Origin: Candidatus Nanoarchaeia archaeon
GTDB taxonomy: Archaea; Nanobdellota; Nanobdellia; Woesearchaeales; GW2011-AR9
Direction: 5' to 3'
Length of the DNA: 62,077 bases
NCBI GenBank assembly: GCA_035288985.1
Contig: DATDYP010000025.1
Location: 1 to 62,077 of the forward strand
The notes below the pieces were generated by a model. That model made no database searches, was not told the DNA's origin, and saw only the letters and a list, made by a program, of their open reading frames with translations. Each line of letters opens with the position of its first letter. The stretch's first letter is position 1. Below are positions 30,575-56,419 of this stretch, piece after piece. Made by a program: the position numbers and the translations under genes.

Positions 30575-30914
30575 GTAATACTTTATCTTCTTGAAGTCAA
30601 AGTCGTCGTCTAGGCCTAGTTTTGTAAAATCTACTATGTATACTTTAGTCAAAGTTAAGTTCCGAGCCTATCAAATTCTGTTTTAATATCTAGGCTCAGT
30701 AGATTTTACTGGCCAAGACGACTTTGACTTCTCAATGAGAAAAATAGGGGCAGGCCAGCCAAATCTGGCGAAAATTATTTGTTATTATAACAGTAAAGTT
30801 GATCTTCTTATCAAAGATTTTCGCACCTTAACTATTTCTGACGAATGGTTTAGCAGATTTGGCAACATTGTAGGCCAAGCCCCTATTTTTCTCTTCAGAA
30901 AGCTAAAGTATTAC
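30575..30914. mobile_element. MITE-like element, 340 bp, containing two long nested hairpins
   Basis: Terminal inverted repeats GTAATACTTTA/TAAAGTATTAC, extending to 22 bp with 3 mismatches. 8-bp direct repeat CTTTATCC (30567-30574, 30915-30922). Internal perfect 15-bp stems 30593-30607/30717-30731 and 30737-30751/30879-30893. Confidence 0.7.
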
Positions 30915-30957
30915 CTTTATCCACAATCTTTTTAACTAAAACCCTTATTTTTGCCTT

Positions 30958-31638
30958 ATGAATGGCATAAAGCATCTTGGCATCATTCTGGACGGCAACC
31001 GCAGGTATGCAACAGCAAAAGGCCTGCCGCCCTGGGAAGGGCATAGATTAGGTATAAAGAACGGAAATAAGTTAATCAGCGAGTGGATGGTAGACCTTAA
31101 TATCAAAGAACTGACATTATATCTGTTCTCGATGCAGAATTTTAACAGGGATCCTAAAGAAGTCAAATTCCTTATGAAATTGTTTAAGGAATGGCTAAAA
31201 TCTCTTGATTTTAAGGAATTGAAAAAGAAAGGCATTAAAGTTAATTTTATTGGTAGAATCTATTTGTTCTCTAAAGATATACATTCTTCAATGAAAGAGA
31301 TCATGGAAAAGACTAAGGATAACGAGAATCATATTGTCAATCTGGCCATGGGTTATGGCGGGCAGGAAGAGATTGTTGATGCGGTTAACACTATTTTGAA
31401 GGAGGGAAGATTAAAACAAGTTGATGAGAAAGAATTTTCAAAATATCTTTACCTACAGAGTGAACCTGACATCATCATCAGAACTGGTGGAGCCAGAAGA
31501 ACTTCTAATTTCTTAGTCTGGCAGTCTTGGTATAGTGAATGGTTCTTTACAGAGAAAACCTGGCCGGAATTTACGAAAGAAGATCTGGTTAAAGTGATGG
31601 AAGAATATAAAAAAAGAGAACGAAGGTTTGGGAAGTAA
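30958..31638 (+). CDS. uppS: cis-prenyltransferase (undecaprenyl diphosphate synthase family)
   Basis: IILDGNRRYA, FSMQNFNR, IIRTGG, SNFLVWQSWYSE. Confidence 0.94.
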   Translation: MNGIKHLGIILDGNRRYATAKGLPPWEGHRLGIKNGNKLISEWMVDLNIKELTLYLFSMQNFNRDPKEVKFLMKLFKEWLKSLDFKELKKKGIKVNFIGRIYLFSKDIHSSMKEIMEKTKDNENHIVNLAMGYGGQEEIVDAVNTILKEGRLKQVDEKEFSKYLYLQSEPDIIIRTGGARRTSNFLVWQSWYSEWFFTEKTWPEFTKEDLVKVMEEYKKRERRFGK

Positions 31639-31641
31639 GGT

Positions 31642-32277
31642 ATGCATAAAGTAGAACTAAGTATTCACCATAGAACCTGCTGGGGATCAGAAATAAGCAG
31701 TAAATTCCCGTATCACCAGTTTTCATCAGTAGATTGCAGATGGATAAAAGACCAAGTTGTCCATATTTTACTAGCACGAGGGGATTCATCACAATTTAAG
31801 ATGATTATTGGATATCTCAACAAGAGAAAAGATGTGATGAAAGTGGAATTTCTTAGTGAAGATGACCAGAGTATCTATCTTAGGGTTCTAACCAAGAAAG
31901 ATGAACATACTCCCCAATTTTCCGATTTATTCTTTGAACATCATTGTTTCCCTGTTCTGCCTACTAGATTTGAAGGGAAGTATGAAGTCTGGACGTTGGG
32001 AACAGCCGAAAAGAATAATATTACAGATGTATATAATTTACTGAAAAAGAAACATTCTGTAAAAATAGATTACCTTAAAGAAGAAACAATTCAAAATGCT
32101 CTTACAAAAAAACAAAGAGAAGTTCTAAATTACGCAAAGCATTTTGGGTATTATGAATGGCCAAGGAAAAAAACAGTTACAGACATTTGTATTATAATAA
32201 ATATGCCAAAAACAGTTTTTCTCTCGCATCTGAGAAAAGCCGAGAATAAAATTATGTCTGACTTCTTATCCCGATGA
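31642..32277 (+). CDS. Transcription regulator with C-terminal bacterio-opsin-activator-type HTH
   Basis: LTKKQREVLNYAKHFGYYEWPRK...SHLRKAENKI. Confidence 0.8.
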   Translation: MHKVELSIHHRTCWGSEISSKFPYHQFSSVDCRWIKDQVVHILLARGDSSQFKMIIGYLNKRKDVMKVEFLSEDDQSIYLRVLTKKDEHTPQFSDLFFEHHCFPVLPTRFEGKYEVWTLGTAEKNNITDVYNLLKKKHSVKIDYLKEETIQNALTKKQREVLNYAKHFGYYEWPRKKTVTDICIIINMPKTVFLSHLRKAENKIMSDFLSR

Positions 32278-32310
32278 AAGTAGACCATGGTCTATAGAAA
32301 TTTAATATAG

Positions 32311-32757
32311 ATGTCGGTATTTTTCTCTGCCATGGAGTTTAAACCATTTGAAAATAAGCTTGTAGCAGTCTTGAGTAAGAACATAGAGACAGGTAGAGCT
32401 ATGAATGCTTTGGCTCATATGGCGTTAGGATTAAGCGGAAGTGTTAAAAATAGAGAGGAACTAAGACTACAAGATTATACTGATGCTGACAGAGAAAGAC
32501 ACCCTCAAATTTCAGACATACCATTCATTATTCTTAAAGGAAGCTCTGGTCAGATACGAAACCTACGAAAATCTGCTCTTGAAAATGGTTTGCATTTTAC
32601 TGATTTTACCAATACTATGATTGGAGAGACGTATGTTCAACAACATCAAAATACCCAGAAAACGAGAGAAGAAGACTTGGAGTATTTTGGAATTTGTTTG
32701 TTTGGGAATTGGGGAAAAATTTCTGAACTTACCAAAAAATTTTCGTTATGGAGGTAG
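32311..32757 (+). CDS. DUF2000-like (peptidyl-tRNA hydrolase II-like) protein
   Basis: KLVAVLSKNIETGRAMNALAHMALGL, YTDAD, ISDIPFIILKG. Confidence 0.7.
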   Translation: MSVFFSAMEFKPFENKLVAVLSKNIETGRAMNALAHMALGLSGSVKNREELRLQDYTDADRERHPQISDIPFIILKGSSGQIRNLRKSALENGLHFTDFTNTMIGETYVQQHQNTQKTREEDLEYFGICLFGNWGKISELTKKFSLWR

Positions 32758-32763
32758 AATAAC

Positions 32764-33105
32764 ATGGATCCTGACCTTCGACAACTGATAGACAGCCGGG
32801 AATATAGGGGATTTACTGGCGAAGCTGCTGTAGAAGAAGCATATCAACGAATTTCTGAAAGATATGACCAACCTAGAAACGAATCTGATTTGATTATGAC
32901 TCTTATTAATTCTAATGGATTTAAATCCTTGTTTGAGATGTATTTTGCCCTACATCCAGAAGAAGCTCAACAGATTGTGGACGAGCATAATGCCAGATTT
33001 ACTGGATTACGAGGATGGTTAGAACCGTTTGCATACTTTTGCAATCCAGTTCGTGGTGCAAGATATGAGGCTGCAAGAAGGCAATTAGAAGAGCATAAGG
33101 AATAA
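32764..33105 (+). CDS. Hypothetical protein
   Basis: 113-aa co-oriented ORF. Confidence 0.55.
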   Translation: MDPDLRQLIDSREYRGFTGEAAVEEAYQRISERYDQPRNESDLIMTLINSNGFKSLFEMYFALHPEEAQQIVDEHNARFTGLRGWLEPFAYFCNPVRGARYEAARRQLEEHKE

Positions 33106-33111
33106 AAAAAA

Positions 33112-33900
33112 TTACAACTTACTCCCTAACTCAATTGCCGCCTGCCGCATGTCTCTTGCTTCATAGATTCCTCTGCCAACGATGGCATGGAAACGTTGGC
33201 CAGCTGCCGCTGCTCCTTTTGAAACCTCCCCGCCTTGAGCTACAAAACCAGGAGAGAAGAAGGAAGGATTTTCTATCCCGCCCTGTTCCTCAATGTAGGA
33301 TTTGTAGAGAGCAATTCGCTCCGGCTTATTGCCGGGAACGACAAAGTCTTCCACACCCAATTTTGCTGCAATGAGATACATCATCAGAACACCTTCTGGC
33401 CTGATAAATCCAGTTTGATCGACCATCCCAAGTTGATGGAAGATTGCACTATAATCAGTCTTGACCGTACCATCTTTGTTCCTTTCATTGCTAAAATCAC
33501 CATCCAGATAACGGGCATGAGTCATCTCACCACCTACGATAACACCTAATCCTAGTTCTTGGGCAGTTTTGATCCAACTGTATTCAGTTACCGGACCTGA
33601 TTGAGGAAATAATATTACAGCGTCAATTCCAGATTCCTTCATCTGCTCCAAAATACTGCGAGCGGTGTCTGGGGTGTCTGTTCCCAATTTTTGCCCGTCA
33701 AAGATCAGCGGCTTGCCAGTTTCATATCTTGCGACTTCAACGACCGCATCATAACCAGGCCTTCCTGTTAACGCCGGCCCAATCTTATAGCCGCCAATTA
33801 CATCCAAATCCCCCGTTGCTTTGACAAGCTGTTCAAAAACCTTCAAAGGCACGTCACATGCCGGTATGATACTTCGATCTCGTTCAATTATCTTTCCCAT
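33112..33900 (-). CDS. pyrF: Orotidine 5'-phosphate decarboxylase
   Basis: IPACDV, GGYKIG, IFDGQKLGTDTPDT (DxKxxD-type), PGFVAQGG, IVGRGIY; adjacent to pyrE. Confidence 0.85.
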   Translation of the reverse strand: MGKIIERDRSIIPACDVPLKVFEQLVKATGDLDVIGGYKIGPALTGRPGYDAVVEVARYETGKPLIFDGQKLGTDTPDTARSILEQMKESGIDAVILFPQSGPVTEYSWIKTAQELGLGVIVGGEMTHARYLDGDFSNERNKDGTVKTDYSAIFHQLGMVDQTGFIRPEGVLMMYLIAAKLGVEDFVVPGNKPERIALYKSYIEEQGGIENPSFFSPGFVAQGGEVSKGAAAAGQRFHAIVGRGIYEARDMRQAAIELGSKL

Positions 33901-33902
33901 TT

Positions 33903-34631
33903 TTATTCACCTAAATGTATCGGTTCAACACCATATTGTCTAAATTCAGCTTCAACTTTATCAGCAATATCACGTCCTGGCTGCAATTTCTGATATGCTA
34001 GCGGCAATAGATCAAGAGCATTGCTGAGCGATCTATATGGAACATTCATGCGTGCTAGAGCTCTCCGAACACTTAAACCATCATCACGCAGTTCCATGCG
34101 ATTAGTAAGGCCGATAGCAGCAACGACAGGTACCCCATCATTCCTAAGACGTTCTATTTCATCAATTAAGGAACCTCCAGTGGTAGTGACATCTTCCAGA
34201 ACAAGAGTTGGTCCTTTAGGCACCCCGCCTATATAATGTCTATCTTCCGGTCTGCCATGATCTTTTGGCTTGCTCCGCCTCAACGTCAGCTTATCGCTTC
34301 CAAAATCATATTCTGGTGATCGTTTAGCTAGTTCGACTTTTGTGAAGGCAGCAAGAAACGTCGCTCCGTCAGGAACACCATAAATATACTGTGCTTTGAT
34401 ACCATAGTCACTGATATAATCTGTGATAAAATCTGCAACATGAGTTGCCAGAACGCCAAGCGTAAACACATCAGTAGTAGCTTCCCGCCAATTGACATAC
34501 CAATTAGACTGCCGTCCTGATTTAAGCGTAACCGGCTCTTCAAAAAAACCAATCACACCTCGATCCAGAACAAAATTGTTAAATCTCTCTTGATTGAATC
34601 TTCGCATGTTCAAAACCCCCATTTCCAGCAT
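33903..34631 (-). CDS. pyrE: Orotate phosphoribosyltransferase
   Basis: LKSGRQSNWY, KPKDHG, PRPP-binding LVLEDVTTTGGS. Confidence 0.88.
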   Translation of the reverse strand: MLEMGVLNMRRFNQERFNNFVLDRGVIGFFEEPVTLKSGRQSNWYVNWREATTDVFTLGVLATHVADFITDYISDYGIKAQYIYGVPDGATFLAAFTKVELAKRSPEYDFGSDKLTLRRSKPKDHGRPEDRHYIGGVPKGPTLVLEDVTTTGGSLIDEIERLRNDGVPVVAAIGLTNRMELRDDGLSVRRALARMNVPYRSLSNALDLLPLAYQKLQPGRDIADKVEAEFRQYGVEPIHLGE

Positions 34632-34716
34632 TCCAACAAGAACTCTTTAATAAATGTTTTGAATTATCCACTTAACCACAACAATCCATATAAATGCCTT
34701 TTTGTACTGAAAACAG

Positions 34717-36519
34717 ATGTCTGCAATACACCTTCTCGATGAAGATCTGATCAATAAGATTGCCGCAGGAGAGGTAGTTGAACGCCCGGCTTCAGTAGTA
34801 AAAGAGATAGTAGAAAATTCCCTGGATGCCCAGGCGACGAAGATAGATGTAGAAATACAAGATTCCGGCAAGAAGCTGATAAAAGTAAGTGATAACGGCG
34901 AAGGGATGAGCAAAGAAGATGTCTTAAAATCCGTCCTCAGGCATGCTACCAGCAAGATCCAGTCCGTGGAAGAATTATTTTCCATCACCACTCTCGGCTT
35001 TCGCGGCGAAGCCCTGGCCAGCATCGCAGCCGTATCACAACTTTCTATTACTTCAAAACAGAAAGGAAAACTAGAAGGGTTTACTATGGTACTAGAAAAC
35101 GGAGGTATCATCAATTCTGGAATCGCTGCAGCAGAAGAAGGTACAACTGTAGAAGTTCGTAATCTCTTTTTCAATACACCAGCAAGAAAAAAATTTCTCA
35201 AGACCGATGCCGTGGAGTTGCGGCATATCATTGATGTGGTCATTAACTACGCTCTAGCCAACCCGAAAGTTTCTTTCAAACTAACACACGAAGGGCACAC
35301 GCTGCTGCATTCGCCTGCTGTTGCTGATGCACGGAGCAATATTGCTTCTATCTACGGGATACAGCTGGCCAAGGAATTGCTGGAAGTGCAGTATCAAGAT
35401 GAGTTTGTAAAAATTAACGGCTTCATCGCCAAACCGTATCAAGTCAGGAATGATAAAACCCAGCAAGTTCTGTTGGTCAATAAAAGATGGGTCAAAAATA
35501 ATGACATCACCAAGGCTGTTTACGACGGCTATCATTCCATGTTGTTTGTGAATAAGCATCCTGTTTTTGTCTTGAATCTGGATCTTGATCCGCAGAAGAT
35601 TGACGTCAATGTCCATCCGCAGAAATCTGAAATCAAGATTGAACAGAAAGAACTGGTGATAAAGGCCGTAACTACGGCTGTTAACCAGACCTTGAGGAAG
35701 CATAACCTTATCCCGGTATTGGATGTTGAGTTTGAACAGCAAACCAGTTTTGGCATCCCTGCACAAAAGAAGGTAGAAAAACCTGCCTACAAATATCAGT
35801 TTGAAAAAGCCCAGCAGACCATGTTTGTGCGGGAAGAAGCCTTGCCATTGCAGGAAGCAGAGGAAGATAAAGAAGTATATCAGGAGCAGGAACCAGTAAT
35901 CATCCCGGAACAGGAAGCTGCTGCAGAAAGAACTGAAACATCAGCAATTCCAGCATTAAAAATTCTCGGACAGGTGCACAAGACCTTTTTCGTAGCCGAA
36001 ACGCCGGGAGGGATGATGTGTATCGATCAGCATGCTGCCCATGAACGGGTCTTGTATGAGCAGTTTATGAAGCAGTACATGAACAAGCAGATTGAGGTCC
36101 AGCATCTGCTGCAGGGCGAAATGATGGAATTTTCTCCGGCAGAGAAAATACTAGTAATGGAAAGAAAGGCAGAGCTAGAACGATACGGCTTCAGGCTGGA
36201 AGAGTTTGGCGACAATGCTTTTGTCCTTAAGACAGTGCCGTCATTGCTAGGCAGGATACAGCCGGCAGAAATAACCTACGAAATAGTCAACAAGCTGCAG
36301 CAGGAGAAAGGTTCATTACAGGAGATACAGGAAGAGATCATCACCAGGATGGCCTGTCGTGCTGCAGTGATGGCTGGAGAAGTTCTAAGCATTTTTCAAA
36401 TTAATGCCATCTTAGATGATCTGTCGTTGTGCCAACATCCCTATACCTGCCCGCATGGACGCCCGACTATGATCAAGACCTCGTATGAGGAGTTGGAGAA
36501 GAAGTTTAAACGGAAGTAA
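34717..36519 (+). CDS. mutL: DNA mismatch repair endonuclease MutL
   Basis: KIAAGEVVERPASVVKE, DNGEG, TLGFRGEALASI, DVNVHPQK, endonuclease motifs DQHAAHERVLYE and CPHGRP. Confidence 0.97.
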   Translation: MSAIHLLDEDLINKIAAGEVVERPASVVKEIVENSLDAQATKIDVEIQDSGKKLIKVSDNGEGMSKEDVLKSVLRHATSKIQSVEELFSITTLGFRGEALASIAAVSQLSITSKQKGKLEGFTMVLENGGIINSGIAAAEEGTTVEVRNLFFNTPARKKFLKTDAVELRHIIDVVINYALANPKVSFKLTHEGHTLLHSPAVADARSNIASIYGIQLAKELLEVQYQDEFVKINGFIAKPYQVRNDKTQQVLLVNKRWVKNNDITKAVYDGYHSMLFVNKHPVFVLNLDLDPQKIDVNVHPQKSEIKIEQKELVIKAVTTAVNQTLRKHNLIPVLDVEFEQQTSFGIPAQKKVEKPAYKYQFEKAQQTMFVREEALPLQEAEEDKEVYQEQEPVIIPEQEAAAERTETSAIPALKILGQVHKTFFVAETPGGMMCIDQHAAHERVLYEQFMKQYMNKQIEVQHLLQGEMMEFSPAEKILVMERKAELERYGFRLEEFGDNAFVLKTVPSLLGRIQPAEITYEIVNKLQQEKGSLQEIQEEIITRMACRAAVMAGEVLSIFQINAILDDLSLCQHPYTCPHGRPTMIKTSYEELEKKFKRK

Positions 36520-36549
36520 GGCCGTGGGATTAGACAAAAAACTCTTAAT

Positions 36550-37233
36550 TTATTTCTCACCAACCGCATACCCTTTTGGAACTTCTACATCTTCAGTCTT
36601 CACCGAATTTAAACCGAGCTGAGTGAAGGAATGCTCCTCGCCAGAACCTTCAACCACATACTTCATCGTTAATCCAGAAAACTTGTCCAGATTGATTGTG
36701 GTAGTCCCATAAGCAACGATCATCGTTTTACGCTGTTCGATCAACTCATCCCCTCTGATAACTGCATCGGCAGGAATTCCTTGCGACAAGAGATGCGGCA
36801 AATATGGTAGATCCTCAGTAGAATAGGCAATAGGATAAATTTTTAACCTCAAGCCTTCGCAGGCAACACTCAACGATTCACAGACTGCAAACGCTGTCTT
36901 TTCTATCGGATCAAGATACACAGTATCATATGATAACATCTTGCTCACTCTCACAGGGGTAGAATATTCCTTCTTGATTTTCCCCTTGTAATAAAATACT
37001 AAATATCCACTGGAAGCTATAGAAGTTGTTTTCTTGTAGAAATACCTGTAATTGTCAGCGGTCTTGCTTTTTTCCACCAGTTCTGCTATGGCTGGATCCA
37101 GCTTAAGTTGCTCGACAATGATTGGCTTTTCGGTGATTTCACTCGGCAACGGTTCAGGAGGCGATTCCTGAACTGGTACACAGGCTGTAAGCATAAGAAT
37201 GGATAAGATACATCCAATAATCACCAGCTTCAT
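36550..37233 (-). CDS. Putative lipoprotein (LolA-like/outer-surface beta protein, function unknown)
   Basis: MKLVIIGCILSILMLTAC lipobox; start reassigned to the ATG at 37233. Confidence 0.6.
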   Translation of the reverse strand: MKLVIIGCILSILMLTACVPVQESPPEPLPSEITEKPIIVEQLKLDPAIAELVEKSKTADNYRYFYKKTTSIASSGYLVFYYKGKIKKEYSTPVRVSKMLSYDTVYLDPIEKTAFAVCESLSVACEGLRLKIYPIAYSTEDLPYLPHLLSQGIPADAVIRGDELIEQRKTMIVAYGTTTINLDKFSGLTMKYVVEGSGEEHSFTQLGLNSVKTEDVEVPKGYAVGEK

Positions 37234-37317
37234 AGGCAGAAAGAAATACAAAATACTATTTAAAGCTATTCTTCACCCACCGCAAACTATTTTAACCCTT
37301 ACGTTTTCCAATAAGAT

Positions 37318-37947
37318 ATGAAAATCATCCTTGTCGGCCCTCCGGGAAGCGGGAAGGGAACCATCTCCGAACGACTGGAAAAGGACTTTAAGCTGAAACA
37401 TCTTTCTGCTGGGGAATTGCTGCGGGAAGAGGTAAAAAAAGACACCACCATCGGCAGGGATATCAAAAACCTTATTGAGAAAGGAAACTTAGTTCCCGAT
37501 CAATTGGTAGTAGAGATCATCAAGCTGGAAGTAAAGGGGAAGGATAATTATATCCTGGACGGCTTCCCTCGATCACTGAAACAGGCCGAGGCAATTGATA
37601 ATATGAACATTAGCACGGTCATTTATGTTGAGGTTCCGGAGAATGTCATTGTAGAACGCCTCTCCGGACGACGGGTATGCGCAACAGGAGTGCATGGCTA
37701 CCATCTCAAATACCTCCCTCCCAAAAAACCAGGTGTCTGCGATCATGATGGAACAAAACTTACCATGCGGAAGGACGACGCTCCAGAGATTGTCAAGGAG
37801 CGCTTCAGAGTCTACTATAAGACTACCCAGCCGCTGATCAAATATTACAGCCAAAAAGGGCTTCTAGCAACAGTTGACGGTACTCTTGCTCCAGAGCAGG
37901 TTTATGCTTCGGTAAAAAAGATTATCTTACTACAGAAAAAAAAATAA
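37318..37947 (+). CDS. adk: Adenylate kinase (bacterial type with LID)
   Basis: GPPGSGKGT, YILDGFPR, RLSGRRVC, RKDD. Confidence 0.94.
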   Translation: MKIILVGPPGSGKGTISERLEKDFKLKHLSAGELLREEVKKDTTIGRDIKNLIEKGNLVPDQLVVEIIKLEVKGKDNYILDGFPRSLKQAEAIDNMNISTVIYVEVPENVIVERLSGRRVCATGVHGYHLKYLPPKKPGVCDHDGTKLTMRKDDAPEIVKERFRVYYKTTQPLIKYYSQKGLLATVDGTLAPEQVYASVKKIILLQKKK

Positions 37948-37973
37948 GAGAACAAATAAAAAATCGGTGAACG

Positions 37974-39110: not shown

Positions 39111-39171
39111 GCCAGAAGTAAAAAAGACAGTCTTTATAAATATTATTGATTCTCATTATCAATAAAAGGGA

Positions 39172-46493: not shown

Positions 46494-46494
46494 C

Positions 46495-48930: not shown

Positions 48931-49502
48931 AGAAAAGGCTCATTGGATTAGCAGCCCTGCTCGCTGCTTGTTCACCACAGAAAGAAATCCTAACCCCGCC
49001 AGTAATACCAGAAATAAAATTAGAAGAAAGAACGGCACCTGAAGTTGATCCAGAACCTCTGGAAGAGAAGGAGAAAGTATCACCTCACAACGAATACCGC
49101 AACTTAGGAGAACAATGCGGCCAAATCCAGCTGGAAAGAGGGACGTATCCAGTAAAGAAGGAGGGCTGGGATGCCATATATACGGTACAGACTTGGGATT
49201 CTGGAAAAAATTGCTACCTTGCTCTATCAAACCCAGAGCTTTCGGTTGAAATGAGGGATGACGACTGTGATAATACGATCGATCGCATAGGCGTAGAAGA
49301 ATACCCCCTCGTAGAATACCGTATCGGTCTTCGCGGAGACCGCATCGACCTTAGTCTTGACCGTGCTGCATTATCGAGGCTTGGTTACACAAAGCCTTTT
49401 GACAAGATCCTTGAAGAAGCGCAGCAATTTGCCTGTCCGGAAAACAAAAGACACTTAGAAGAATATCTTTTGAAAAGAGTCCTAGAAATTGGGAATAAAT
49501 AA
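48927..49502 (+). CDS. Putative lipoprotein
   Basis: MKKRLIGLAALLAAC lipobox. Confidence 0.6.
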   Translation: MKKRLIGLAALLAACSPQKEILTPPVIPEIKLEERTAPEVDPEPLEEKEKVSPHNEYRNLGEQCGQIQLERGTYPVKKEGWDAIYTVQTWDSGKNCYLALSNPELSVEMRDDDCDNTIDRIGVEEYPLVEYRIGLRGDRIDLSLDRAALSRLGYTKPFDKILEEAQQFACPENKRHLEEYLLKRVLEIGNK

Positions 49503-49524
49503 AAATAAGAAAATAACTCCTTAC

Positions 49525-49959
49525 CTACGGCAAAAAGCTCAATCCGCCTACAATCGCTCCCATCAACAGCAAGTTCACCAAATCATAGGCTGTATTAAGA
49601 AAGTATAAATTCCAGGACTTACCCTCCCAGAAAACGCTGCCTAAAGATTTAGTAGCTACAAAGCCTAGCCAGATCAAAGCTCCAACAAGTGCACCACCCA
49701 AAGCATTCCATAAAACTGGGGTTGCTCCGGTAATGTCTACAAAATCTTTAACTAGAAAAGCTAAAACAGCCGCTGTCACCAGTGAAGCCACAAAACTCAT
49801 CGAATACGTTTTAGCCATGCCTTTCTGCTTGGCTTTCTCCATATCCTTCTCAGTAAACTTCATCAAAGCCATCCATTTCTTGCCAAATAAAGGCCCATAC
49901 CACAAAAAGCCCAAGGCATGGGATACCACAGCTGCAATTAAAACTTCCAAGTATACCAT
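49525..49959 (-). CDS. DUF1761-like membrane protein
   Basis: LGFLWYGPLFGKKWMAL, four transmembrane segments, FLNTAYDLV. Confidence 0.8.
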   Translation of the reverse strand: MVYLEVLIAAVVSHALGFLWYGPLFGKKWMALMKFTEKDMEKAKQKGMAKTYSMSFVASLVTAAVLAFLVKDFVDITGATPVLWNALGGALVGALIWLGFVATKSLGSVFWEGKSWNLYFLNTAYDLVNLLLMGAIVGGLSFLP

Positions 49960-50074
49960 CTTTTATCACGCTCCAGATATTTTTGATGATAGAGGAAGAG
50001 AAGTGTTATAAGTCTTTCTCTACCAGCCTTCTCTTAGAAAGATTTATAAGTCTGCTTTTTATCACCACTAGAAA

Positions 50075-50683
50075 ATGACGGAAGATTCTCAAGAGGCCAT
50101 AGGACTCGGGACTCGCTTCTCTGACGAGTACAGAAAACACTATAGTAAGATCTACTCCCAGCTGATGCGAAAAACCGGAAACAAGACTGTGGCTGAAGAT
50201 TTAACCCAAGAAACATTCAGGAAGGCATTTGAAAGTCTTAACACCTTCAGAGAGGGAGCTAGTTTTGGCACCTGGCTCTATGGCATAGCCCATAATGTTG
50301 CTCTCGATTATTTCCGAGACAGAAGGATGCAATCAGCATTTTATAATGGAGCTATGGAAGGTCTGCGGCAAAAAGACGGTCATCACAGAAGTTCTGATGA
50401 AAAAAGTCAACGCTGGTTCCTGGGCGGGCTGGAGCAGGTTCTTGCCGTTGTCAGCAGCACTCCTGAACAGGATGCAATAACCTGCGAGGAAGTTGCTGAA
50501 GCACGGAAATATATCATGACAGCTCTTTCTGAAAAGCTGCGACATGCATACTCACTGCATCTTCAAGGATATACTGATCGGGAAATTGCAGAACAGCTTG
50601 GAATGAAAGAACAGGCAGTAACGACACGAATCAGCAGGGCACGACAGCAACTTCGCAACTACCACCAGGAGCAGTCAGCATGA
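50075..50683 (+). CDS. ECF-type sigma-70-family protein
   Basis: Region 2 AEDLTQETFRKAF...SFGTWLYGIAHNVALDYFR; region 4 HTH GYTDREIAEQLGMKEQAVTTRISRARQQLR. Confidence 0.85.
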   Translation: MTEDSQEAIGLGTRFSDEYRKHYSKIYSQLMRKTGNKTVAEDLTQETFRKAFESLNTFREGASFGTWLYGIAHNVALDYFRDRRMQSAFYNGAMEGLRQKDGHHRSSDEKSQRWFLGGLEQVLAVVSSTPEQDAITCEEVAEARKYIMTALSEKLRHAYSLHLQGYTDREIAEQLGMKEQAVTTRISRARQQLRNYHQEQSA

Positions 50684-51228
50684 AACAAACCATCATCGCA
50701 CGTCTTCAACAACTTGAACAGAAATCGATCAAAAGAGGCATACCTATCCTTGGCTCGCAAAAAGGCGCCTGGCTATTGCAGCAAGTGCAAAAACTGAAAC
50801 CAAAACGTATTCTGGAATTAGGAACTGCTAACGGCTATAGTGGCTGCATTCTAGGCAGTGAAGGAGCTGACCTAACAACCGTTGAAATTGATGACAAGAT
50901 CGCTGAAGAAGCAGTTGTGAATTTTGCTGCCTTTGATATCAAAGCGAACATCATCCTTGGCGATGGCGTGGAAATCGTAGGTGATCTGGCCAGGCAAAAA
51001 AAAGAGTATTATGATCTCATTTTTATTGACTTCTCAAAAAAGAATTATATCAAAGTCCTGGAACAGTGCATCAAACTGGTTCGACAAGACGGCTTGATCA
51101 TCGCTGACAATATCAGTTTTGAAAACTGCCAAGATTTCAAAGAAGCAGTGCTTGCACATCCAAAGCTGGAAACAGAAATCATCAGCATCAAAGACGGGCT
51201 GAGCTGCAGCCGAAAGAGAGAGGTATGA
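50680..51228 (+). CDS. Class I O-methyltransferase (TrmR/YrrM-like)
   Basis: GIPIL, KRILELGTANGYSG, DLIFID, GLIIADN. Confidence 0.8.
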   Translation: MKQTIIARLQQLEQKSIKRGIPILGSQKGAWLLQQVQKLKPKRILELGTANGYSGCILGSEGADLTTVEIDDKIAEEAVVNFAAFDIKANIILGDGVEIVGDLARQKKEYYDLIFIDFSKKNYIKVLEQCIKLVRQDGLIIADNISFENCQDFKEAVLAHPKLETEIISIKDGLSCSRKREV

Positions 51229-51923
51229 ATAAGAATACAATAAGCATGCTGGTTTTTCTTGCAGGATGCGCAGAAACACCCCTTCCTACCCCACCAACAC
51301 CGGAAGTCATCATTCCTGAACGTATTGTCACTAATAAAGATTTAAAGCAGGAACCTACAGACGTTCTTGCACAACAGATCTTCCATGATCTTGAGCATTT
51401 GACAACAGGTGACGAAGCGGGAGTACGACTGATCAAACATTATAATGTTGATACAGAAAAGTGGGAAGAAAAACCAGTCTATCAACTGCAAAGATCAGCG
51501 GTGAAGCTCCCTTCTTATCACTCAGATATCATCGTTTCAGTAAGGGATGTTTATCACGACGGAACAACAGACTTAGAAATCAGAAGAGTTGCTAAAAAGG
51601 AGATCAGAGTCTACCGCGATCTTCCGCCATTCGGCACCCTGGATTCATATGAAGAATGCCGCCGAAGACCGTATCATGTCGTGGTTTGTGTCGGCCAATC
51701 CTGTTCGGGAAGTGATAAAACAGAATACTTCGCCTGCAACGGCAAGGAAATCAGCCCAAAAGTGAAAGAAGCCTTCAACACCCTGGTTGCCCGCGTCCAT
51801 AACAGCCTGAATGAAGCAACTCCTCTGGATAAGCAGGATTATCATTACATGGAACTGGAGTTTATCTTAGAAAGGAGTGAGGCGGTAATTAATCTTGCTG
51901 GAACCAAGAGTCCGTATAAGTGA
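51225..51923 (+). CDS. Putative lipoprotein
   Basis: MNKNTISMLVFLAGC lipobox followed by a Pro-rich linker. Confidence 0.6.
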   Translation: MNKNTISMLVFLAGCAETPLPTPPTPEVIIPERIVTNKDLKQEPTDVLAQQIFHDLEHLTTGDEAGVRLIKHYNVDTEKWEEKPVYQLQRSAVKLPSYHSDIIVSVRDVYHDGTTDLEIRRVAKKEIRVYRDLPPFGTLDSYEECRRRPYHVVVCVGQSCSGSDKTEYFACNGKEISPKVKEAFNTLVARVHNSLNEATPLDKQDYHYMELEFILERSEAVINLAGTKSPYK

Positions 51924-51964
51924 CTGGATCGTAGACATCAGGAATAAAGACAAAAATTGGGCTG

Positions 51965-52933
51965 TTAAAGATATTGATAATAGACTTCAAAGAATTTTCG
52001 ATACGTTTCTTTTGCTTTTTCTATTCCGAATCTTAGTAAAGGGATATAACGATCTGTGTCTGCTGATTGTAAGGCTTTGATATATTTATTACGATGAGTA
52101 TTCCTGATAATGATAGGATAATATCCTTTTCTGATCAAGATGTGATTTAAGAGCATTCTACCCACTCTTCCATTTCCATCTGCAAAAGGATGAATCTGCT
52201 CAAATTTATGATGAAACCTAAATGCCAATTCTAAAGGATAAACCTTATTTTCCGTTTCCCAGTACCATTTTAAAAGATTCTTAATCTCCCGAGAAACATT
52301 CTCTGGAGCAGTTAATGTAATAGCTCTGCCTAAAATAATATTCGGCAATTTTTTATAGCCAACGCGCTCATCAACGTTTTTCATAAGCTTCTTATGCAGT
52401 TCAATAATAAATTCTTCCGTTATTTCCTTCTTCGAGTCAAATAACTTTGAAAAAATTTCATAAGAATTTTTGGCATCATAAACTTCTCTCAGATCAGCAG
52501 AAGCGACTATTTTATTCTCAAAAACAATTTCAGAAAAGTTCTTTAGAGTGAGGGAATTGCCCTCCAAGGCGTTTGATTCAAACACGAAATTAGCCACGAA
52601 TCTTTTTTTAACGTCTTCCCAATCTTTTTTATTCAATGCTCTTCGAATTTCTTTATATTTTAGGTTCATTTCTTCGATCTTTTTTATTTCTTCAATAGTA
52701 AGGGGGAAGTCCAAAGAATACTTTTTTTTAGCGTCTGCTACTAAAAAGGAAACAATTTTTTTATCTAGTTCTAAGGCAAATTTTTTCTTTTCTTTCTCAA
52801 TTTGTTCTGGAGATATTCCTGATTTTTTCCCCAAGAACTTGCTGATTTTGTGCACTTTCTTTCCGATCCGGATAGATTTATCTAAGTAAAGGTAAACCTC
52901 TCCCTTTGCCTTTCGTTTCTGGATAAAGACCAT
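51965..52933 (-). CDS. Fic-domain protein
   Basis: Catalytic HPFADGNGRVGR and inhibitory-helix-like ESNALEGN. Confidence 0.92.
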   Translation of the reverse strand: MVFIQKRKAKGEVYLYLDKSIRIGKKVHKISKFLGKKSGISPEQIEKEKKKFALELDKKIVSFLVADAKKKYSLDFPLTIEEIKKIEEMNLKYKEIRRALNKKDWEDVKKRFVANFVFESNALEGNSLTLKNFSEIVFENKIVASADLREVYDAKNSYEIFSKLFDSKKEITEEFIIELHKKLMKNVDERVGYKKLPNIILGRAITLTAPENVSREIKNLLKWYWETENKVYPLELAFRFHHKFEQIHPFADGNGRVGRMLLNHILIRKGYYPIIIRNTHRNKYIKALQSADTDRYIPLLRFGIEKAKETYRKFFEVYYQYL

Positions 52934-52940
52934 ACCAGCA

Positions 52941-52986
52941 GTTATACCTACATATATTTAAATCCTTCGTTTATTGTAGGTATAAC
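52941..52986. promoter_or_regulatory. Inverted-repeat operator candidate flanking the Fic gene TATA box
   Basis: GTTATACCTACA (52941-52952)/TGTAGGTATAAC (52975-52986) around ATATTTAAAT. Confidence 0.55.
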
Positions 52987-53002
52987 CAGGTGCTGCAAGA
53001 CT

Positions 53003-53096
53003 TATACTAAAGGATTGAAATTTTCGAACAAAATTTCCCTCCTTTATATATACAAAGGGCTTAAATTTTCTTCGAAAATTTATGTCCTTTGGTATA
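53003..53096. repeat. Long imperfect hairpin
   Basis: AAATTTTCGAA (53018-53028)/TTCGAAAATTT (53071-53081) plus outer TATAC/GTATA and inner CCTTT/AAAGG. Confidence 0.7.
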
Positions 53097-53171
53097 TTAC
53101 AAAAATGTCATACCTACTACATTAATGCAACACTTTTCTTTTTCCATCTGCAATAAACACCATAATACACC

Positions 53172-53323
53172 GGCTCTGTAGAAAGCCTTAAAAAAGTCGC
53201 CTTGGCCGCTCGGTTCGTGCTTCTAAATAAGTATCTTCTCGCAGGAAGCACCAATAATATCTGCAAGCAGTGGATGCTCTCACTTCGCCTTAAGGCCCAG
53301 GCGGCGACTTTTTCTACAGAGCC
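53172..53323. mobile_element. MITE-like element, 152 bp
   Basis: Perfect 13-bp terminal inverted repeat GGCTCTGTAGAAA/TTTCTACAGAGCC; 9-bp direct repeat TAATACACC (53163-53171, 53324-53332); internal AAAAGTCGCC/GGCGACTTTT stem. Confidence 0.75.
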
Positions 53324-53330
53324 TAATACA

Positions 53331-53350
53331 CCACAATCTTTAAATATAAT
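53331..53350 (+). promoter_or_regulatory. BRE/TATA promoter of the aro leader and operon
   Basis: CCACAATC-TTTAAATA with an ATG 30 nt after the box start. Confidence 0.7.
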
Positions 53351-53368
53351 TCTGCATTTCACATCCAA

Positions 53369-53422
53369 ATGGTCCACAGCAGCAGGAAGAACTGGACTGC
53401 TTTTCTCTACTATTTTTATTAG
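53369..53422 (+). CDS. Aromatic-rich leader peptide MVHSSRKNWTAFLYYFY (candidate attenuator)
   Basis: Six of the last nine sense codons are Trp/Phe/Tyr; directly upstream of DAHP synthase-tyrA-pheA; overlaps a long RNA stem. Confidence 0.75.
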   Translation: MVHSSRKNWTAFLYYFY

Positions 53423-53493
53423 TTTTGGGTTCGTCAGACATTACGGATCCTGAAAAAAGGAAATAGAGAAAAAGCTATACTGAAACAGCGAGG

Positions 53494-54384
53494 ATGAAAA
53501 TGAGACAGGAAGCCAAACTTGCAAAAACCATACCAACAGGAAAGGAATACTGGCTTGTAGCCAGGGAAAGCAGGGACGAGTTCAGAAACAACTTAGACAC
53601 GGTCTCATTCACGATCGGCAATGTAACCGTATCACAGCACAGACCGCTGATCATTGCCGGGCCTTGTGCAGTACATTCACGAGAACAGACTCTTGCCATT
53701 GCCCAACACGTTAAAGAAGCTGGCGCAGACATGCTGCGCGGAGGAGCCTATAAGCCCAGAACATCTCCTTATGCTTTCCAAGGCTTAGAAGAAGAGGGAC
53801 TGAAAATACTTGCGGAAGCACGGGAGCTAACCGGACTACCTATCGTTACAGAAGTTATGGACCCGCGTTTAGTCGAGTTAGTCGGCCAGTACACCGATGT
53901 GCTGCAGATCGGCGCGCGAAACATGCAGAATTTTCCACTCCTGCGGGAAGTAGGAAAATATGCCGCACAACATCAAAAGGGAATATTGCTAAAAACAGGA
54001 TTGATGCCTAAGCTAAAGGAAGTCCTCTGCGCAGCAGAATATCTCGCTCATGAAGGGGCAGAAAAAATCATCATCTGTGAACGAGGCATTTCCCTAACTA
54101 CTGGCGATACGAGAAACACGCCCCACCCCAGTTTTGTACGCGAACTGCGGCAGGCGACCTTCCTTCCTGTCATCGGTGATCCCAGCCATTCTACGGGAGA
54201 TCGGGAATTGGTGGAACATACTTCAGACATGTATCTGGCAGCCAAAGCAAATGGACTGTTAATTGACGTCATCCGCGATGATGAGCCTGATGTCATTAAC
54301 GGGCATCCGGTCTGTGACTATAAACAGGGATTGCCTGCCAGCCGGTTTAAAGCATACCTCAACTCGCTCAGGAAAGAGAAATAA
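53494..54384 (+). CDS. aroF: DAHP synthase, class I-beta, without a full N-terminal ACT domain
   Basis: IIAGPC, RGGAYKPRTSP, QIGARNMQN, CERGI, DPSHSTG; GAGG upstream suggests a start at 53500. Confidence 0.9.
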   Translation: MKMRQEAKLAKTIPTGKEYWLVARESRDEFRNNLDTVSFTIGNVTVSQHRPLIIAGPCAVHSREQTLAIAQHVKEAGADMLRGGAYKPRTSPYAFQGLEEEGLKILAEARELTGLPIVTEVMDPRLVELVGQYTDVLQIGARNMQNFPLLREVGKYAAQHQKGILLKTGLMPKLKEVLCAAEYLAHEGAEKIIICERGISLTTGDTRNTPHPSFVRELRQATFLPVIGDPSHSTGDRELVEHTSDMYLAAKANGLLIDVIRDDEPDVINGHPVCDYKQGLPASRFKAYLNSLRKEK

Positions 54385-54385
54385 A

Positions 54386-55429
54386 ATGAGTCTAGAAAAA
54401 ATCAGAACAGAACTTGATGCGATAGATAAGTCAATCCTGGAATTGCTGGCAAAACGCTTTTCTTTCTGCAAAGACGTCAGCGATTACAAAAAAAAGAACA
54501 AGCTTAAAGTGAAAGATTCTACAAGAGAGGAGGAGATCATCAACGACAGGATCAAAATCTTCTCCGAGCTAGGATATGATGAACCAGAGTTTATTACTGC
54601 ATTATTTACCTTAATTTTAGAAAAGTCACGGGAAAAGATCGCAACCTACTCCTCGGAATCAGAACCAGAACGTAAGGGAAAGAAAAAAACAATCTCCATC
54701 ATCGGAGGAGGGGGAAAGATGGGCTCTTTATTTGCAGAAGAGTTCAGGAAACACGGGCATACTGTGCTTATCTCCAACAAAGAAAAGACCAATTCGGTTG
54801 AACTGGCACAGAAAGGCGATCTTGTTATTGTTACAGTTCCTTTGGAGAAGACAGAAAAAGTTCTAACAGAGATCATCCCGCATCTCCGAAAAGAAGCCTT
54901 GCTGACTGATTTTACATCAATAAAAGAACGACCTTTAGAGATTATGAAAACGGCTGCATCAAATGTGGTGGGAGGACATCCCTTGTTCGGTCCAACGACA
55001 AGCTTTGAAGATAAATGTTTCATCCTCTGTCCTGGGAAAGGTGATTTTAGCTGGTATAAACAATTGCTGCAATCCCTAAACCTTACTGTCATCGAACTCT
55101 CTGCTGAAGAGCACGACAAAACCATGGCCGTGATCCAAAGCTTAACTCATTTCTCCAATCTTGCCTTAGCCTCTACGCTGCAGAAGCTTGGATTTAAAAA
55201 AACGTTTTCCACACCCACCTATGCATTAAAAATGGAATCTATCCAAAAAATGTTCTCCCAGGATGCAGAGCTGTTCGCAGAGATCCAGTTTGCAAATGCA
55301 CATTCGCAAGAAACTATCATCAGCTACCTTGCTGCGGTGCACGAACTGCATCAATGCCTCCTCTCAGGCAACAAAGAGGAGTTTGAACGTCTCTTCGAAA
55401 GCACAAAACAGCATCTACAAAAAAAGTAA
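54386..55429 (+). CDS. tyrA: Chorismate mutase / prephenate dehydrogenase fusion
   Basis: LEKIRTELDAIDKSILELLAKR (chorismate mutase), IIGGGGKMG, DFTSIK, GGHPLFGP, HDKTMAVIQSLTH; start reassigned to 54386. Confidence 0.9.
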   Translation: MSLEKIRTELDAIDKSILELLAKRFSFCKDVSDYKKKNKLKVKDSTREEEIINDRIKIFSELGYDEPEFITALFTLILEKSREKIATYSSESEPERKGKKKTISIIGGGGKMGSLFAEEFRKHGHTVLISNKEKTNSVELAQKGDLVIVTVPLEKTEKVLTEIIPHLRKEALLTDFTSIKERPLEIMKTAASNVVGGHPLFGPTTSFEDKCFILCPGKGDFSWYKQLLQSLNLTVIELSAEEHDKTMAVIQSLTHFSNLALASTLQKLGFKKTFSTPTYALKMESIQKMFSQDAELFAEIQFANAHSQETIISYLAAVHELHQCLLSGNKEEFERLFESTKQHLQKK

Positions 55430-55439
55430 CCAGACCAAG

Positions 55440-56243
55440 ATGATCAAGACCATCGCCATCCTCGGGCCAGAATACAGTTTCTCCCATCTAGCAGGCCTGA
55501 AACTATTTCCGGAAGGGAAATTTTTGTTCTGTAACAGGATAGAAGACATCTTCAAGACCATAACGAGAGCAGATACAACTGCAGATGAAACACTTGGGAT
55601 GGTCCCTTTAGAAAATATGCTGCAGGGAACGGTGCGGGAAACGCTGATGTCCCTGCTAAACTATCAAGTCAAGATCCACAAAAGCTGCAGTGTTCCTATC
55701 CATCATTGCCTGGCTGCTAAAAGTGTGGGATTTACAACTATTGCTTCACATGCACAGGCGCTGGCACAATGCGCGCGCTTTCTGGAAGGAAAGAAAACTG
55801 TCGAACAGGTCAGTACCTCAAAAGCGATGCAGGCAGCAACAGAAGACAATACCCTGGCTGCCATCGGCTCCAGAGAAGCAGCACAATATTACGGACTAAC
55901 AGTGCTGCAGGACAATATCGAAGACAATCATGATAATGTGACACGATTTGTGGTCATTTCTGCTGAACCATGCCCGGATAAGGGTGCAAGAACCAGCCTG
56001 ATGGTGCATCCTAAAGAAGACCGTCCTGGACTATTGTTCACGATCCTAGCGCCCTTTGCGACACAGGGAATTAACTTAACCAAGATCGAGTCCCTGCCTT
56101 CAGGAAAAAAACTTGGTGAGTATATTTTTTATATTGAGATCGCTGGAAATAGTAGTGAGCTAAAAGTGAAATCGGCTATTGATTTTCTCAAAAACAGCGC
56201 GGAAGTCTATTCTTTTGGGTCGTATGATGTGGTGGAGATGTGA
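55440..56243 (+). CDS. pheA: Prephenate dehydratase
   Basis: ILGPEYSFS, VPLENMLQG, SHAQALAQC, NVTRF, C-terminal ACT NLTKIESLP; start reassigned to 55440. Confidence 0.9.
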   Translation: MIKTIAILGPEYSFSHLAGLKLFPEGKFLFCNRIEDIFKTITRADTTADETLGMVPLENMLQGTVRETLMSLLNYQVKIHKSCSVPIHHCLAAKSVGFTTIASHAQALAQCARFLEGKKTVEQVSTSKAMQAATEDNTLAAIGSREAAQYYGLTVLQDNIEDNHDNVTRFVVISAEPCPDKGARTSLMVHPKEDRPGLLFTILAPFATQGINLTKIESLPSGKKLGEYIFYIEIAGNSSELKVKSAIDFLKNSAEVYSFGSYDVVEM

Positions 56244-56275
56244 GCAAAACATTCTTCATAAAAACTCAAAAAACC

Positions 56276-56419
56276 GTACGTATTTAGTTAGTAGGCCAAG
56301 GGTGAATTTTGCTAAGCTTTAGTGACAGGAACAGAAGTGAAAATTATCGATAACAAATCTGTTTACCAACTATTTATCATCAAATTTTCACCAAAATTCA
56401 CGGCCAACTAAATACGTAC
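56276..56419. mobile_element. MITE-like palindromic element, 144 bp
   Basis: Perfect 14-bp inverted repeat GTACGTATTTAGTT/AACTAAATACGTAC; near-direct repeat AAAAAACC/AAAAAGCC; inner GTGAATTTTG/CAAAATTCAC and GTGAAAATT/AATTTTCAC stems. Confidence 0.6.

Follow-up and report, generated by a model that had tools for sequence, protein, structure and literature searches.

Inside the window, by which we mean the whole stretch of 62,077 nucleotides that was analysed, three insertions hold four copies of a GGCC-clamped module (c1 to c4), with c1 and c2 sharing one composite element. Each insertion is bounded by a short direct repeat and adjoined by a BRE-like spacer and a TATA-like box; genes begin downstream of the composite MITE (ATG at 30958) and of the c4 MITE (ATG at 56467). 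The features, in order along the window, are as follows.

30567..30574, no strand: left target-site duplication of the composite MITE, CTTTATCC, by direct reading (8-mer repeated at 30915-30922)
30575..30914, plus strand: composite MITE of 340 bp holding c1 and c2, with terminal inverted repeats GTAATACTTTA... / ...TAAAGTATTAC
30593..30731, minus strand (the family's common orientation, "B"): module c1, with outer stem GAAGTCAAAGTCGTC, then GGCC clamp, inner helix P2 and hairpin P3
30737..30893, plus strand (orientation B): module c2, with outer stem GAGAAAAATAGGGGC, then GGCC clamp
30915..30922, no strand: right target-site duplication of the composite MITE, CTTTATCC, by direct reading
30923..30936, plus strand: spacer ACAATC (6 nt, BRE-like) and TATA-like box TTTTTAAC, by direct reading and the ORF list
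53163..53171, no strand: left target-site duplication of the c3 MITE, TAATACACC
53172..53323, plus strand: subfamily-1 MITE (c3) of 152 bp, with ends GGCTCTGTAGAAA... / ...TTTCTACAGAGCC
53191..53313, plus strand (minus in the initial annotation): module c3, with outer stem AAAAAGTCGCC, GGCC clamp, P2 and P3
53324..53332, no strand: right target-site duplication of the c3 MITE, TAATACACC
53333..53348, plus strand: spacer ACAATC (6 nt, BRE-like) and TATA box TTTAAATATA, beside the c3 MITE
56268..56275, no strand: left target-site duplication of the c4 MITE, AAAAAACC, one mismatch to the right copy
56276..56419, minus strand (orientation B): c4-type MITE of 144 bp, whose module outer stem GTACGTATTTAGTT doubles as terminal inverted repeat
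56420..56427, no strand: right target-site duplication of the c4 MITE, AAAAAGCC
56428..56441, plus strand: spacer of 5-6 nt (ACAAT/A) and TATA box (A)TTTATAT(T), beside the c4 MITE

Direct reading of the sequence bears out the four modules reported by the initial annotation, in both position and architecture, together with the homology of c1 and c3 and the compensatory change of a T-A to a C-G pair between them (GTCGTC/GACGAC versus GTCGCC/GGCGAC). Module c2 is the best match to our covariance model R1 (92.9 bits), and c3, in which P2 carries tandem mismatches and P3 is GTGCTTC/GAAGCAC, scores 81.4 bits against the same model. Across the 989-kb genome of this DPANN archaeon there are at least 32 copies. 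The GGCC-clamped pattern greatly exceeds chance: scanning the whole genome for a perfect stem of at least 9 bp, 0 to 8 nt, GGCC, 40 to 400 nt, GGCC, 0 to 8 nt and the complementary stem gave 26 matches, against 0-3 for each of 11 other palindromic 4-mers, and about 32 true copies once one mismatch was tolerated. Of the GGCC/AA junction proposed in the initial annotation, the clamp is nearly invariant, while the AA 3' of the second GGCC is not universal (TA, TT, A or nothing also occur); even the clamp is not strictly fixed, as one copy in a distant family (L205) has a compensated CGCC...GGCG. The family matches no Rfam entry, with no match on the window to Rfam 15 at gathering score and, at E up to 10 over three regions, only chance miRNA and snoRNA matches far below threshold. 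Scanning wider genome contigs for a 14-nt junction word returned chance matches in GC-rich bacteria, the word being too unspecific.

The modules are the interiors of ordinary-looking MITEs, and are neither autonomous structured elements nor free-standing RNA genes. The elements that bear them are short (120-340 bp), multi-copy and lack a long ORF of their own, and they end in terminal inverted repeats (GGCTCTGTAG..., GGCTTGTCCAG..., GTACGTATTT..., GTAATACTTT..., GACACTGTT...). Direct repeats of 8-9 bp with 0-1 mismatch flank them at 25 sites by script, and at more by eye, and differ from copy to copy (e.g. TAATACACC at c3, AAAACCTAC on contig C23, TCTTTAACC on C13, CTTTATCC at c1+c2, and CTTTTTCA and ACCTAAAC at sisters of c4); terminal inverted repeats and direct repeats flank copies in other genera too. 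The whole 340-bp composite recurs on two other contigs, C15 (94-95% identity) and C18 (81%), each time with a duplication of its own (8/8 on C15, 6/8 on C18). Sister copies of c4 with perfect 8-bp duplications lie on C12 and C21, and c4-type copies occur elsewhere, six in genome G007 and several in G014. The undescribed family of structured RNA or ssDNA elements that had been postulated is thus real, multi-copy and absent from Rfam, but it is not autonomous and sits inside MITEs.

Nor is the replacement of stems between copies, noted in the initial annotation, a random one: each stem type is a sequence-conserved subfamily that is also present in other genera, and the subfamilies differ in their termini (GGCTCTGTAG, GGCTTGTCCAG, GACACTGTT, GGCACAATCC, GTACGTATTT, GTAATACTTT). 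The earlier view that shape and not sequence is conserved holds between subfamilies, all of which have the fold in common, but not within them, where copies are 70-97% identical across genera; the relatives compared all lie outside the genus.

MITE ends match those of autonomous IS5-family ISs of ~890-1020 bp that reside both here and in related DPANN (Woesearchaeota-type) genomes; the match spans 17-20 nt for a same-order genome and the first 12 nt for this one. The L180 IS ends GGCTCTGTAGAAAATCTCCA and GGCTCTGTAGAAAAAGTATT equal the left end (over 20 nt) and the right end (over 17 nt) of subfamily-1 MITEs, and the L143 IS carries GGCTTGTCCAGAA, the subfamily-2 terminal repeat; L185, L186 and L189 are further autonomous ISs that share MITE ends, and only the termini types GGCTCTGTAG and GGCTTGTCCAG have autonomous partners found. 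Their ORFs match DDE_Tnp_1 (PF01609; E 6.5e-12) and their proteins the NCBIfam IS5 model NF033579 (transpos_IS5_2; E 1e-27 to 3e-42), one of the five above the curated cut-off. In this genome the IS copies are broken at contig ends (C3, C10, C15). One and the same IS left end (GGCTCTGTAGAATTGC...) closes both C3 and C15, so at least two copies exist; C10:1-200 holds a transposase C-terminus plus ...TTTCTACAGAGCC, and the duplication AGCACATAA is common to the end of C3 and the start of C10. The assembly contains no complete autonomous IS and no long multi-copy repeat; judged by the shared ends, the MITEs would most likely be mobilised in trans by an IS5-family DDE transposase. That PF01609 and the MITEs co-occur among relatives is suggestive at most. 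An ISL3 partner, guessed from similar end sequences, was discarded, PF01610 being absent from 41 of 41 relatives.

ISs and MITEs also share a target, in which the duplication is followed by 6 A-rich, BRE-like nucleotides and then a TATA box. TATA-like octamers lie 5-7 nt past the duplication at 22 of 25 MITE sites (p = 3e-16) and 7 of 8 IS sites (p = 8e-6), compared with 14% of random intergenic positions at that spacing. Our literature search returned no description of a prokaryotic DNA transposon homing to a fixed position beside an archaeal core promoter.

The fold of the GGCC-clamped core is under selection or constraint, because subfamilies conserve their own sequences across genera yet share the clamp and the fold. 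Pairing is preserved in every one of about nine unrelated outer stems. P2, the inner helix beside GGCC, covaries strongly: 69 cells changed on both sides versus 21 in shuffles, none of 500 shuffles equalling the observed value, and both sides changed in 9 of 10 pairs; compensatory changes also occur inside one subfamily (the G007 copies). The conservation of this fold shows selection in these MITEs for more than transposase binding. A point against DDE mobilisation is that the core is so elaborate and asymmetric, keeping unpaired motifs and tandem mismatches in a way that no result here accounts for.

For the terminal repeats, duplications, shared ends, target rule and core covariation observed here, the explanation we consider probable is that the modules are the cores of IS5-type-mobilised MITEs parked before TATA boxes, with the fold kept by selection in cis. 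An IS5-family DDE transposase would move the MITEs through their shared ends, making staggered target cuts of 8-9 bp, and the transposition machinery picks a very precise target, the duplicated 8-9 bp lying directly upstream of the BRE-like stretch and TATA box. As the duplication abuts these elements, an insertion comes to rest in front of a promoter that is left intact and points away from it. The clamp and stems would be kept by selection for the element's own spread, presumably through a requirement in cis for a cruciform or for a fold of single-stranded DNA or RNA, e.g. to join the two ends, and not through reading of GGCC by the transposase. The 4-bp clamp may stay constant because so short a loop-flanked helix would tolerate no single changes.

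Recognition of the GGCC/AA junction by the mobilising enzyme, as first suggested, is unlikely: the GGCC module is absent from the partner ISs that share the MITE termini, so the junction is probably not read by the transposase. A wider version, in which ssDNA or RNA hairpins are moved by a GGCC/AA-reading enzyme, whether HUH (Y1) as in REP/REPIN or IS200/IS605 or a reverse transcriptase, could appeal to the junction as the only near-invariant feature across subfamilies and to bulged bases that resemble the strand-choice bases of attC sites and IS608 hairpins. We regard it as very improbable and largely refuted: duplications of 8-9 bp combined with terminal inverted repeats are characteristic of DDE cut-and-paste elements, the ISs that share the MITE ends obey the same target rule without the module, one copy replaces GGCC by the compensated CGCC/GGCG, and Y1_Tnp (PF01797) is absent from this genome (G000) and from G001, G004 and G037, all of which bear the MITEs. 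The initial annotation had also looked to genes inside longer copies, and none lies between GGCC-clamped ends in this genome or at the transposase loci. Hardly credible is a splicing-endonuclease substrate, a relaxed bulge-helix-bulge with GGCC:GGCC as its 4-bp central helix that would yield circular RNAs or permuted tRNAs. It would fit a 4-bp helix between unpaired nucleotides in a lineage rich in tRNA introns, and ARAGORN finds only 8 tRNAs in the genome; the bulges, however, are of 1-2 nt and 4-9 nt and often on the same strand, instead of 3+3 on opposite strands, and circularised interiors hold no tRNA. The idea that the ~32 elements are the genome's missing permuted tRNAs was rejected, as 8192 trimmed interiors, doubled and passed to ARAGORN, gave 0 tRNAs; T-loop motifs reveal ordinary, intron-rich tRNAs elsewhere in the genome.

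A functionless fold, in which each subfamily arose when one arm was duplicated in inverted orientation (a fold-back) and the common architecture descends from one ancestral MITE, strikes us as quite unlikely. Fold-back MITEs are common, and the stems within a copy are nearly perfectly Watson-Crick with hardly any wobble, as in freshly copied arms. Independent drift of the arms over the divergence between subfamilies would nevertheless have abolished pairing, and the account is opposed by the compensatory double changes inside one subfamily and by asymmetries common to subfamilies with unrelated stems (TT versus CAGGC, nothing versus CTTAA). We take more seriously, as possible if doubtful, that the core is a functional hairpin RNA of ~120 nt carried by the MITE, its fold kept for RNA function or processing. 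Such an RNA would be made by divergent transcription from the symmetric TATA box or by read-through from an upstream gene, its ends paired by the outer stem and its synthesis terminated at the T-run after the stem. In subfamilies 1, 2 and c2 a T5-6 run comes immediately after the outer stem, and in subfamilies 1 and 2 that stem begins 24-25 nt from the TATA edge, near the expected archaeal start site, but the distance is not fixed and spans 14 to 35 nt when subfamilies are compared. The MITEs favour one orientation with respect to the neighbouring TATA by roughly 3-4 to 1, unpaired motifs are kept from genus to genus within a subfamily while the loop of P3 is free to vary, and besides the asymmetric bulges the tandem mismatches read as sheared G.A pairs (5'-CGAG/3'-GAGC) on one strand only. 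Against an RNA, neither strand is consistently more stable (17 copies favour one, 15 the other) and G.T versus A.C counts single out neither; P2 is almost free of G.U pairs (1 of 322 cells), which is unusual for an RNA helix, and there is no Rfam relative.

Our preferred reading, of DDE-mobilised MITEs whose fold is selected in cis, leaves room for a bolder combination: small DPANN IS5-family transposons and their MITEs would integrate with single-base precision upstream of BRE/TATA by recognising the TBP/TFB-bound promoter, in the manner of Ty3, and the GGCC core would be a ~120-nt structured RNA made by divergent transcription from the captured promoter, the MITE thereby spreading an RNA gene. 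This conjunction we judge unlikely. If the target rule holds, it would be the first clear case we know of in which a prokaryotic DNA transposon homes to a fixed position beside an archaeal core promoter. It would lend itself to probing TBP/TFB-DNA architecture, and would account for the persistence of mobile DNA in ~1 Mb genomes with almost no spare sequence. Whether the conserved fold acts as DNA or as RNA bears on what lets MITEs out-compete their parents. In annotation, the family accounts for many "structured intergenic RNAs" and contig breaks, and for some apparent promoter-upstream motifs, in Woesearchaeota-type genomes.

Several known systems resemble these elements in part. Integron attC sites (R''/R' boxes AAC/GTT, in cassette arrays beside intI) differ by anatomy, the copies here being scattered, flanked by duplications and promoter-adjoining, with no cassette array in the window. 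REP/BIME/REPIN elements (RAYT, Y1 HUH) are likewise intergenic hairpins of conserved shape with doublets and nested arrangements; they and IS200/IS605, however, make no target-site duplication and need Y1, whereas here duplications are present and Y1 is absent. Among the hairpin-forming bacterial MITEs, Correia/NEMIS of Neisseria, enterobacterial ERIC/IRU and pneumococcal BOX/RUP are similar as intergenic imperfect palindromes of 100-150 bp that are RNA-foldable, conserve structure and can affect neighbouring genes; Correia elements make a TA duplication, and for the three groups we know of no GGCC-type clamp and no targeting at a fixed promoter distance. IS5-derived prokaryotic MITEs are close in being small, non-coding, intergenic and present in many copies, with ends copied from an IS and duplications of 8-9 bp (IS903, of the IS5 family, makes a 9-bp duplication and has an 18-bp end, GGCTTTGTTGAATAAATC); unlike them, subfamilies with different termini here share a covarying internal fold that is absent from the parent ISs, and insertion is placed to the base relative to a TATA box. 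For that placement the parallel lies with promoter-targeted integration in eukaryotes by Ty3 (and Ty1, Tf1 and Dictyostelium TRE): Ty3-type targeting also places integration at a set, short spacing from a promoter occupied by TBP and a TFIIB-like factor, and likewise gives the element a "safe haven" in front of genes where the genome is compact, but it belongs to retroelements whose integrases are tethered by protein contacts, where here a DDE IS and its MITEs follow a comparable rule in an archaeon.

The window holds four GGCC-clamped modules, all intergenic, which direct reading places at the following positions and whose sequence is exactly as the initial annotation had claimed, with an outer stem enclosing two GGCC tetramers and inner stems:

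30593-30731: module c1
30737-30893: module c2
53192-53312, minus strand: module c3
56276-56419: module c4

From the outside inwards, the fold of each module comprises, on either strand, an outer stem, a small internal loop, the clamp (a 4-bp GGCC:GGCC helix), a second loop and inner helices. The surrounding genome (989 kb, 32 contigs, 42.6% G+C), of which the window forms contig C25, was scanned for the pattern stem (perfect, 9 bp or longer) / 0-8 nt / GGCC / 40-400 nt / GGCC / 0-8 nt / complementary stem, which gave 26 matches; when GGCC was replaced in turn by eleven other palindromic tetramers, each yielded 0-3 matches. Once one stem mismatch is permitted, about 32 genuine copies are present, with about nine stem types (AAAAAGTCGCC, AAAGCCGCCC, CAAAGTCGTC, AATGAATGACGGC, GTGAGTGATGGC, AAATAGGGGC, AAAATACTGGC, GGCAGGTAGC and GTACGTATTTAGTT). 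Aligned in a common orientation (orientation B, the reverse complement of that in which the modules were first read), the copies have common parts that go beyond GGCC: an inner helix, P2, that adjoins the clamp on its inner side; the P3 hairpin, in which a stem of 7-9 bp carries a free loop; unpaired bases that are conserved (CTACCAATA, CAATAATATCT, CCTTAACTAT or CTGTTCCTGTCAC); then a motif of a few bases (CTTACGAAAAG, TGCAAGCA or GACTAAAGT); and the 3' strand of P2. The modules match no Rfam family, in keeping with the proposal that they were undescribed. Across the 989 kb, ARAGORN reports only 8 tRNA genes while many good T-arm/acceptor ends are present, a low count consistent with tRNA genes broken by several introns.

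Flanking sequence in orientation B reveals that the repeat unit is larger than the module and runs past it on both sides. The outer ends are GGCTCTGTAGAAA ... CTACAGAGCC in subfamily 1 and GGCTTGTCCAGAA ... CTGGACAAACC in subfamily 2, and both are bracketed by direct repeats whose sequence varies from copy to copy (TAATACACC at c3, AAAACCTAC on C23, ACTAAATCC on C15, TCTTTAACC on C13). A script identified 25 sites, spread over this genome and four others, where paired repeats of 8 or 9 nt that differ at no more than one position adjoin ends with 6 or more of 10 terminal bases inverted. For elements of the c4 type the terminus is the outer stem itself and the duplications are of 8 bp (CTTTTTCA, ACCTAAAC, and AAAAAACC/AAAAAGCC at c4), and c1 and c2 prove to be two modules within a single 340-bp element at 30575-30914 (termini GTAATACTTTA/TAAAGTATTAC, duplication CTTTATCC), the whole of which is found again on C15 (TTCATAAC) and C18. 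Terminal inverted repeats with variable 8-9 bp duplications characterise DDE-type transposition, and the elements are therefore MITEs, of which the module is the core.

Several further arrangements were seen around these elements. An 86-codon open frame that is almost certainly no gene crosses the entire c3 MITE (53117-53377, minus strand). A second repeat of about 58 nt with two hairpins (CACACAAAGTGACAACGATCACTTTGGTGCACCAATAAAGTCGTTGCTTTATTGTGTG) is nested, in both orientations, inside several GGCC-clamp MITEs (positions 58-115 of locus L007 on contig C12; C5:47201, C20:80, C21:13696, C26:18281) and also stands free (C12:31386, C16:11707, C27:5231); it looks like a nested mobile double-hairpin element. 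On C15, outside the window, two near-identical subfamily-2 MITEs (9359-9510 and 12544-12695) lie in direct orientation with about 3 kb of genes between them, an arrangement that may reflect either a recent duplication or a unit resembling a composite transposon.

The probable autonomous partner belongs to the IS5 family. A DDE_Tnp_1 transposase was found in 20 of 41 relatives, and one such locus, in relative G001 (L143:1752-2745), is a 933-bp IS ending in GGCTTGTCCAGAA, the subfamily-2 terminus. No clean duplication is visible at this IS; its transposase frame reads through the right end into the start of an apparent Nudix hydrolase gene, so that the insertion appears to lie in the gene's 5' end or right beside it. 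A search with a related transposase against 201 genomes of the order, in which matches were scanned for terminal repeats and duplications, recovered eight clean ISs of 885-1019 bp, and IS reading frames match the NCBIfam IS5-family model NF033579. The ends of one IS (L180; GGCTCTGTAGAAAATCTCCA and GGCTCTGTAGAAAAAGTATT) are identical to the left (GGCTCTGTAGAAAATCTCC, 20 nt) and right (GGCTCTGTAGAAAAAGTCGCC, 17 nt) ends of the subfamily-1 MITE, which explains the MITE's 6-nt asymmetric loop. In the present genome the resident IS is fragmented, because the assembly breaks in repeats: many contigs end (C3, C15, C21, C26) or start (C10, C12, C20) within IS or MITE copies. C10 opens with the final ~60 codons of such a transposase, after which comes ...TTTCTACAGAGCC, the ends of C3 and C15 carry an identical IS left end (GGCTCTGTAGAATTGC...), and since the 9-bp duplication AGCACATAA is common to the C3 end and the C10 start, these two are probably joined via one IS copy. 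An ISL3 transposase, considered as a partner, was ruled out, with none in the 41 relatives. The suggestion of an HUH nuclease as mobiliser likewise finds no support, as Y1 (HUH) transposases are absent from this genome (G000) and from the MITE-bearing relatives G001, G004 and G037.

Insertion is closely tied to promoters. On the right flank of most copies in orientation B, the 8-9 nt duplication is followed by six A-rich nucleotides, a TATA box, about 25 nt and an ATG whose gene points away from the MITE, and the order of duplication, 6 nt and TATA recurs at MITEs of other genera. All eight autonomous ISs have a TATA-like box 6 nt past the duplication on one side, with an ATG ~18-27 nt after it in six; the IS copy in this genome also fits (AGCACATAA, then AAAAGC, then TTTATATAA). 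Scoring at most two mismatches to TTTAWATA, starting 5-7 nt past the duplication on either side, 22/25 MITE sites and 7/8 IS sites passed, relative to 14.1% of 20,000 random intergenic positions (binomial p = 3e-16 and 8e-6, respectively). The 6-nt spacer matches the composition of an archaeal BRE, and the element therefore sits directly upstream of an intact BRE/TATA. With respect to the promoter, MITEs show an overall orientation bias of roughly 3-4 to 1 that is not absolute (c4 is one reversed case, and the 340-bp composite is seen both ways). In this genome, ~17 of 24 cases have the element in the gap that separates the stop codon of a co-directional gene from the promoter that follows. 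None of the ISs examined contains a GGCC module, and because they follow the same rule, target choice is a property of the transposition machinery and not of the GGCC core.

A covariance model (R1) built from 23 copies finds the copies in this genome at 37-93 bits. When 151 genomes sampled evenly across the order were searched with it, the module turned up in only three others, of which one belongs to the same family and two belong to different families. By BLAST, the MITEs are present in 21 of 61 genomes from the GTDB family to which this one belongs. The R1 sampling and BLAST counts together show that the module family occurs mainly in a single GTDB family of Woesearchaeota-type DPANN archaea and sporadically elsewhere. 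The ends of subfamily 1 are 89-97% conserved in two other genera, where the interiors that we read resemble C23_16094, another subfamily-1 copy of this genome, and the remaining subfamilies match over their full length in further genera (70-82%). The view that copies keep their shape while replacing their stems thus does not hold within a subfamily, where sequence is kept across genera (70-97%).

Several observations count as evidence that pairing is under selection. In a MAFFT alignment made without reference to structure, the cells of the clamp and P2 are paired in 84.8% of cases, versus 67.7% in shuffles, and 69 are changed on both sides, versus 21; sliding the partner gives 6-20 such changes, and none of 500 shuffles attains the count seen, which bears out the covariation expected of the module fold. 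The outer stems are of unrelated sequence and all paired, and c4-type stems vary between this genome (GTGAATTTTG/CAAAATTCAC), G007 (GTCAATTTTG/CAAAATTGAC and GTCAATTCTG/CAGAATTGAC) and G014 (GTTAATTAG/CTAATTAAC). At one locus in a distant family (L205, G111:C140), the clamp is CGCC/GGCG in place of GGCC/GGCC. This sole compensated clamp change seen favours a structural 4-bp helix and, with the ISs that lack the module, argues against the earlier idea of a protein that reads the GGCC junction.

As to what the fold is for, our best reading, of moderate confidence, is that the fold is required in cis for spread of the element: a fold-back or cruciform may join both ends for a transposase supplied in trans, and the clamp would remain constant because so short a helix cannot drift. 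The main rival is that the fold serves an RNA function. Indications of which molecule folds point both ways. Wobble pairs are nearly absent from P2, which looks more DNA-like than RNA-like; isolated mismatches on strand B are G.T in 68 cases versus A.C in 45. The P2 of four subfamilies retains tandem mismatches, which are Y.Y on strand B and 5'-CGAG/3'-GAGC (of the sheared G.A type) on the opposite strand A, and fold energies show no general preference: strand A does better in subfamily 2, and strand B does so in the types c2, c4 and AATG.

As MITEs of the IS5 family, these elements are of a known kind. Two features, neither of which we found described in the searchable literature, make them distinctive: a conserved, covarying, asymmetric core that the subfamilies share although their termini differ, and that the parent ISs lack, and a base-precise insertion upstream of BRE/TATA by ISs and MITEs alike.
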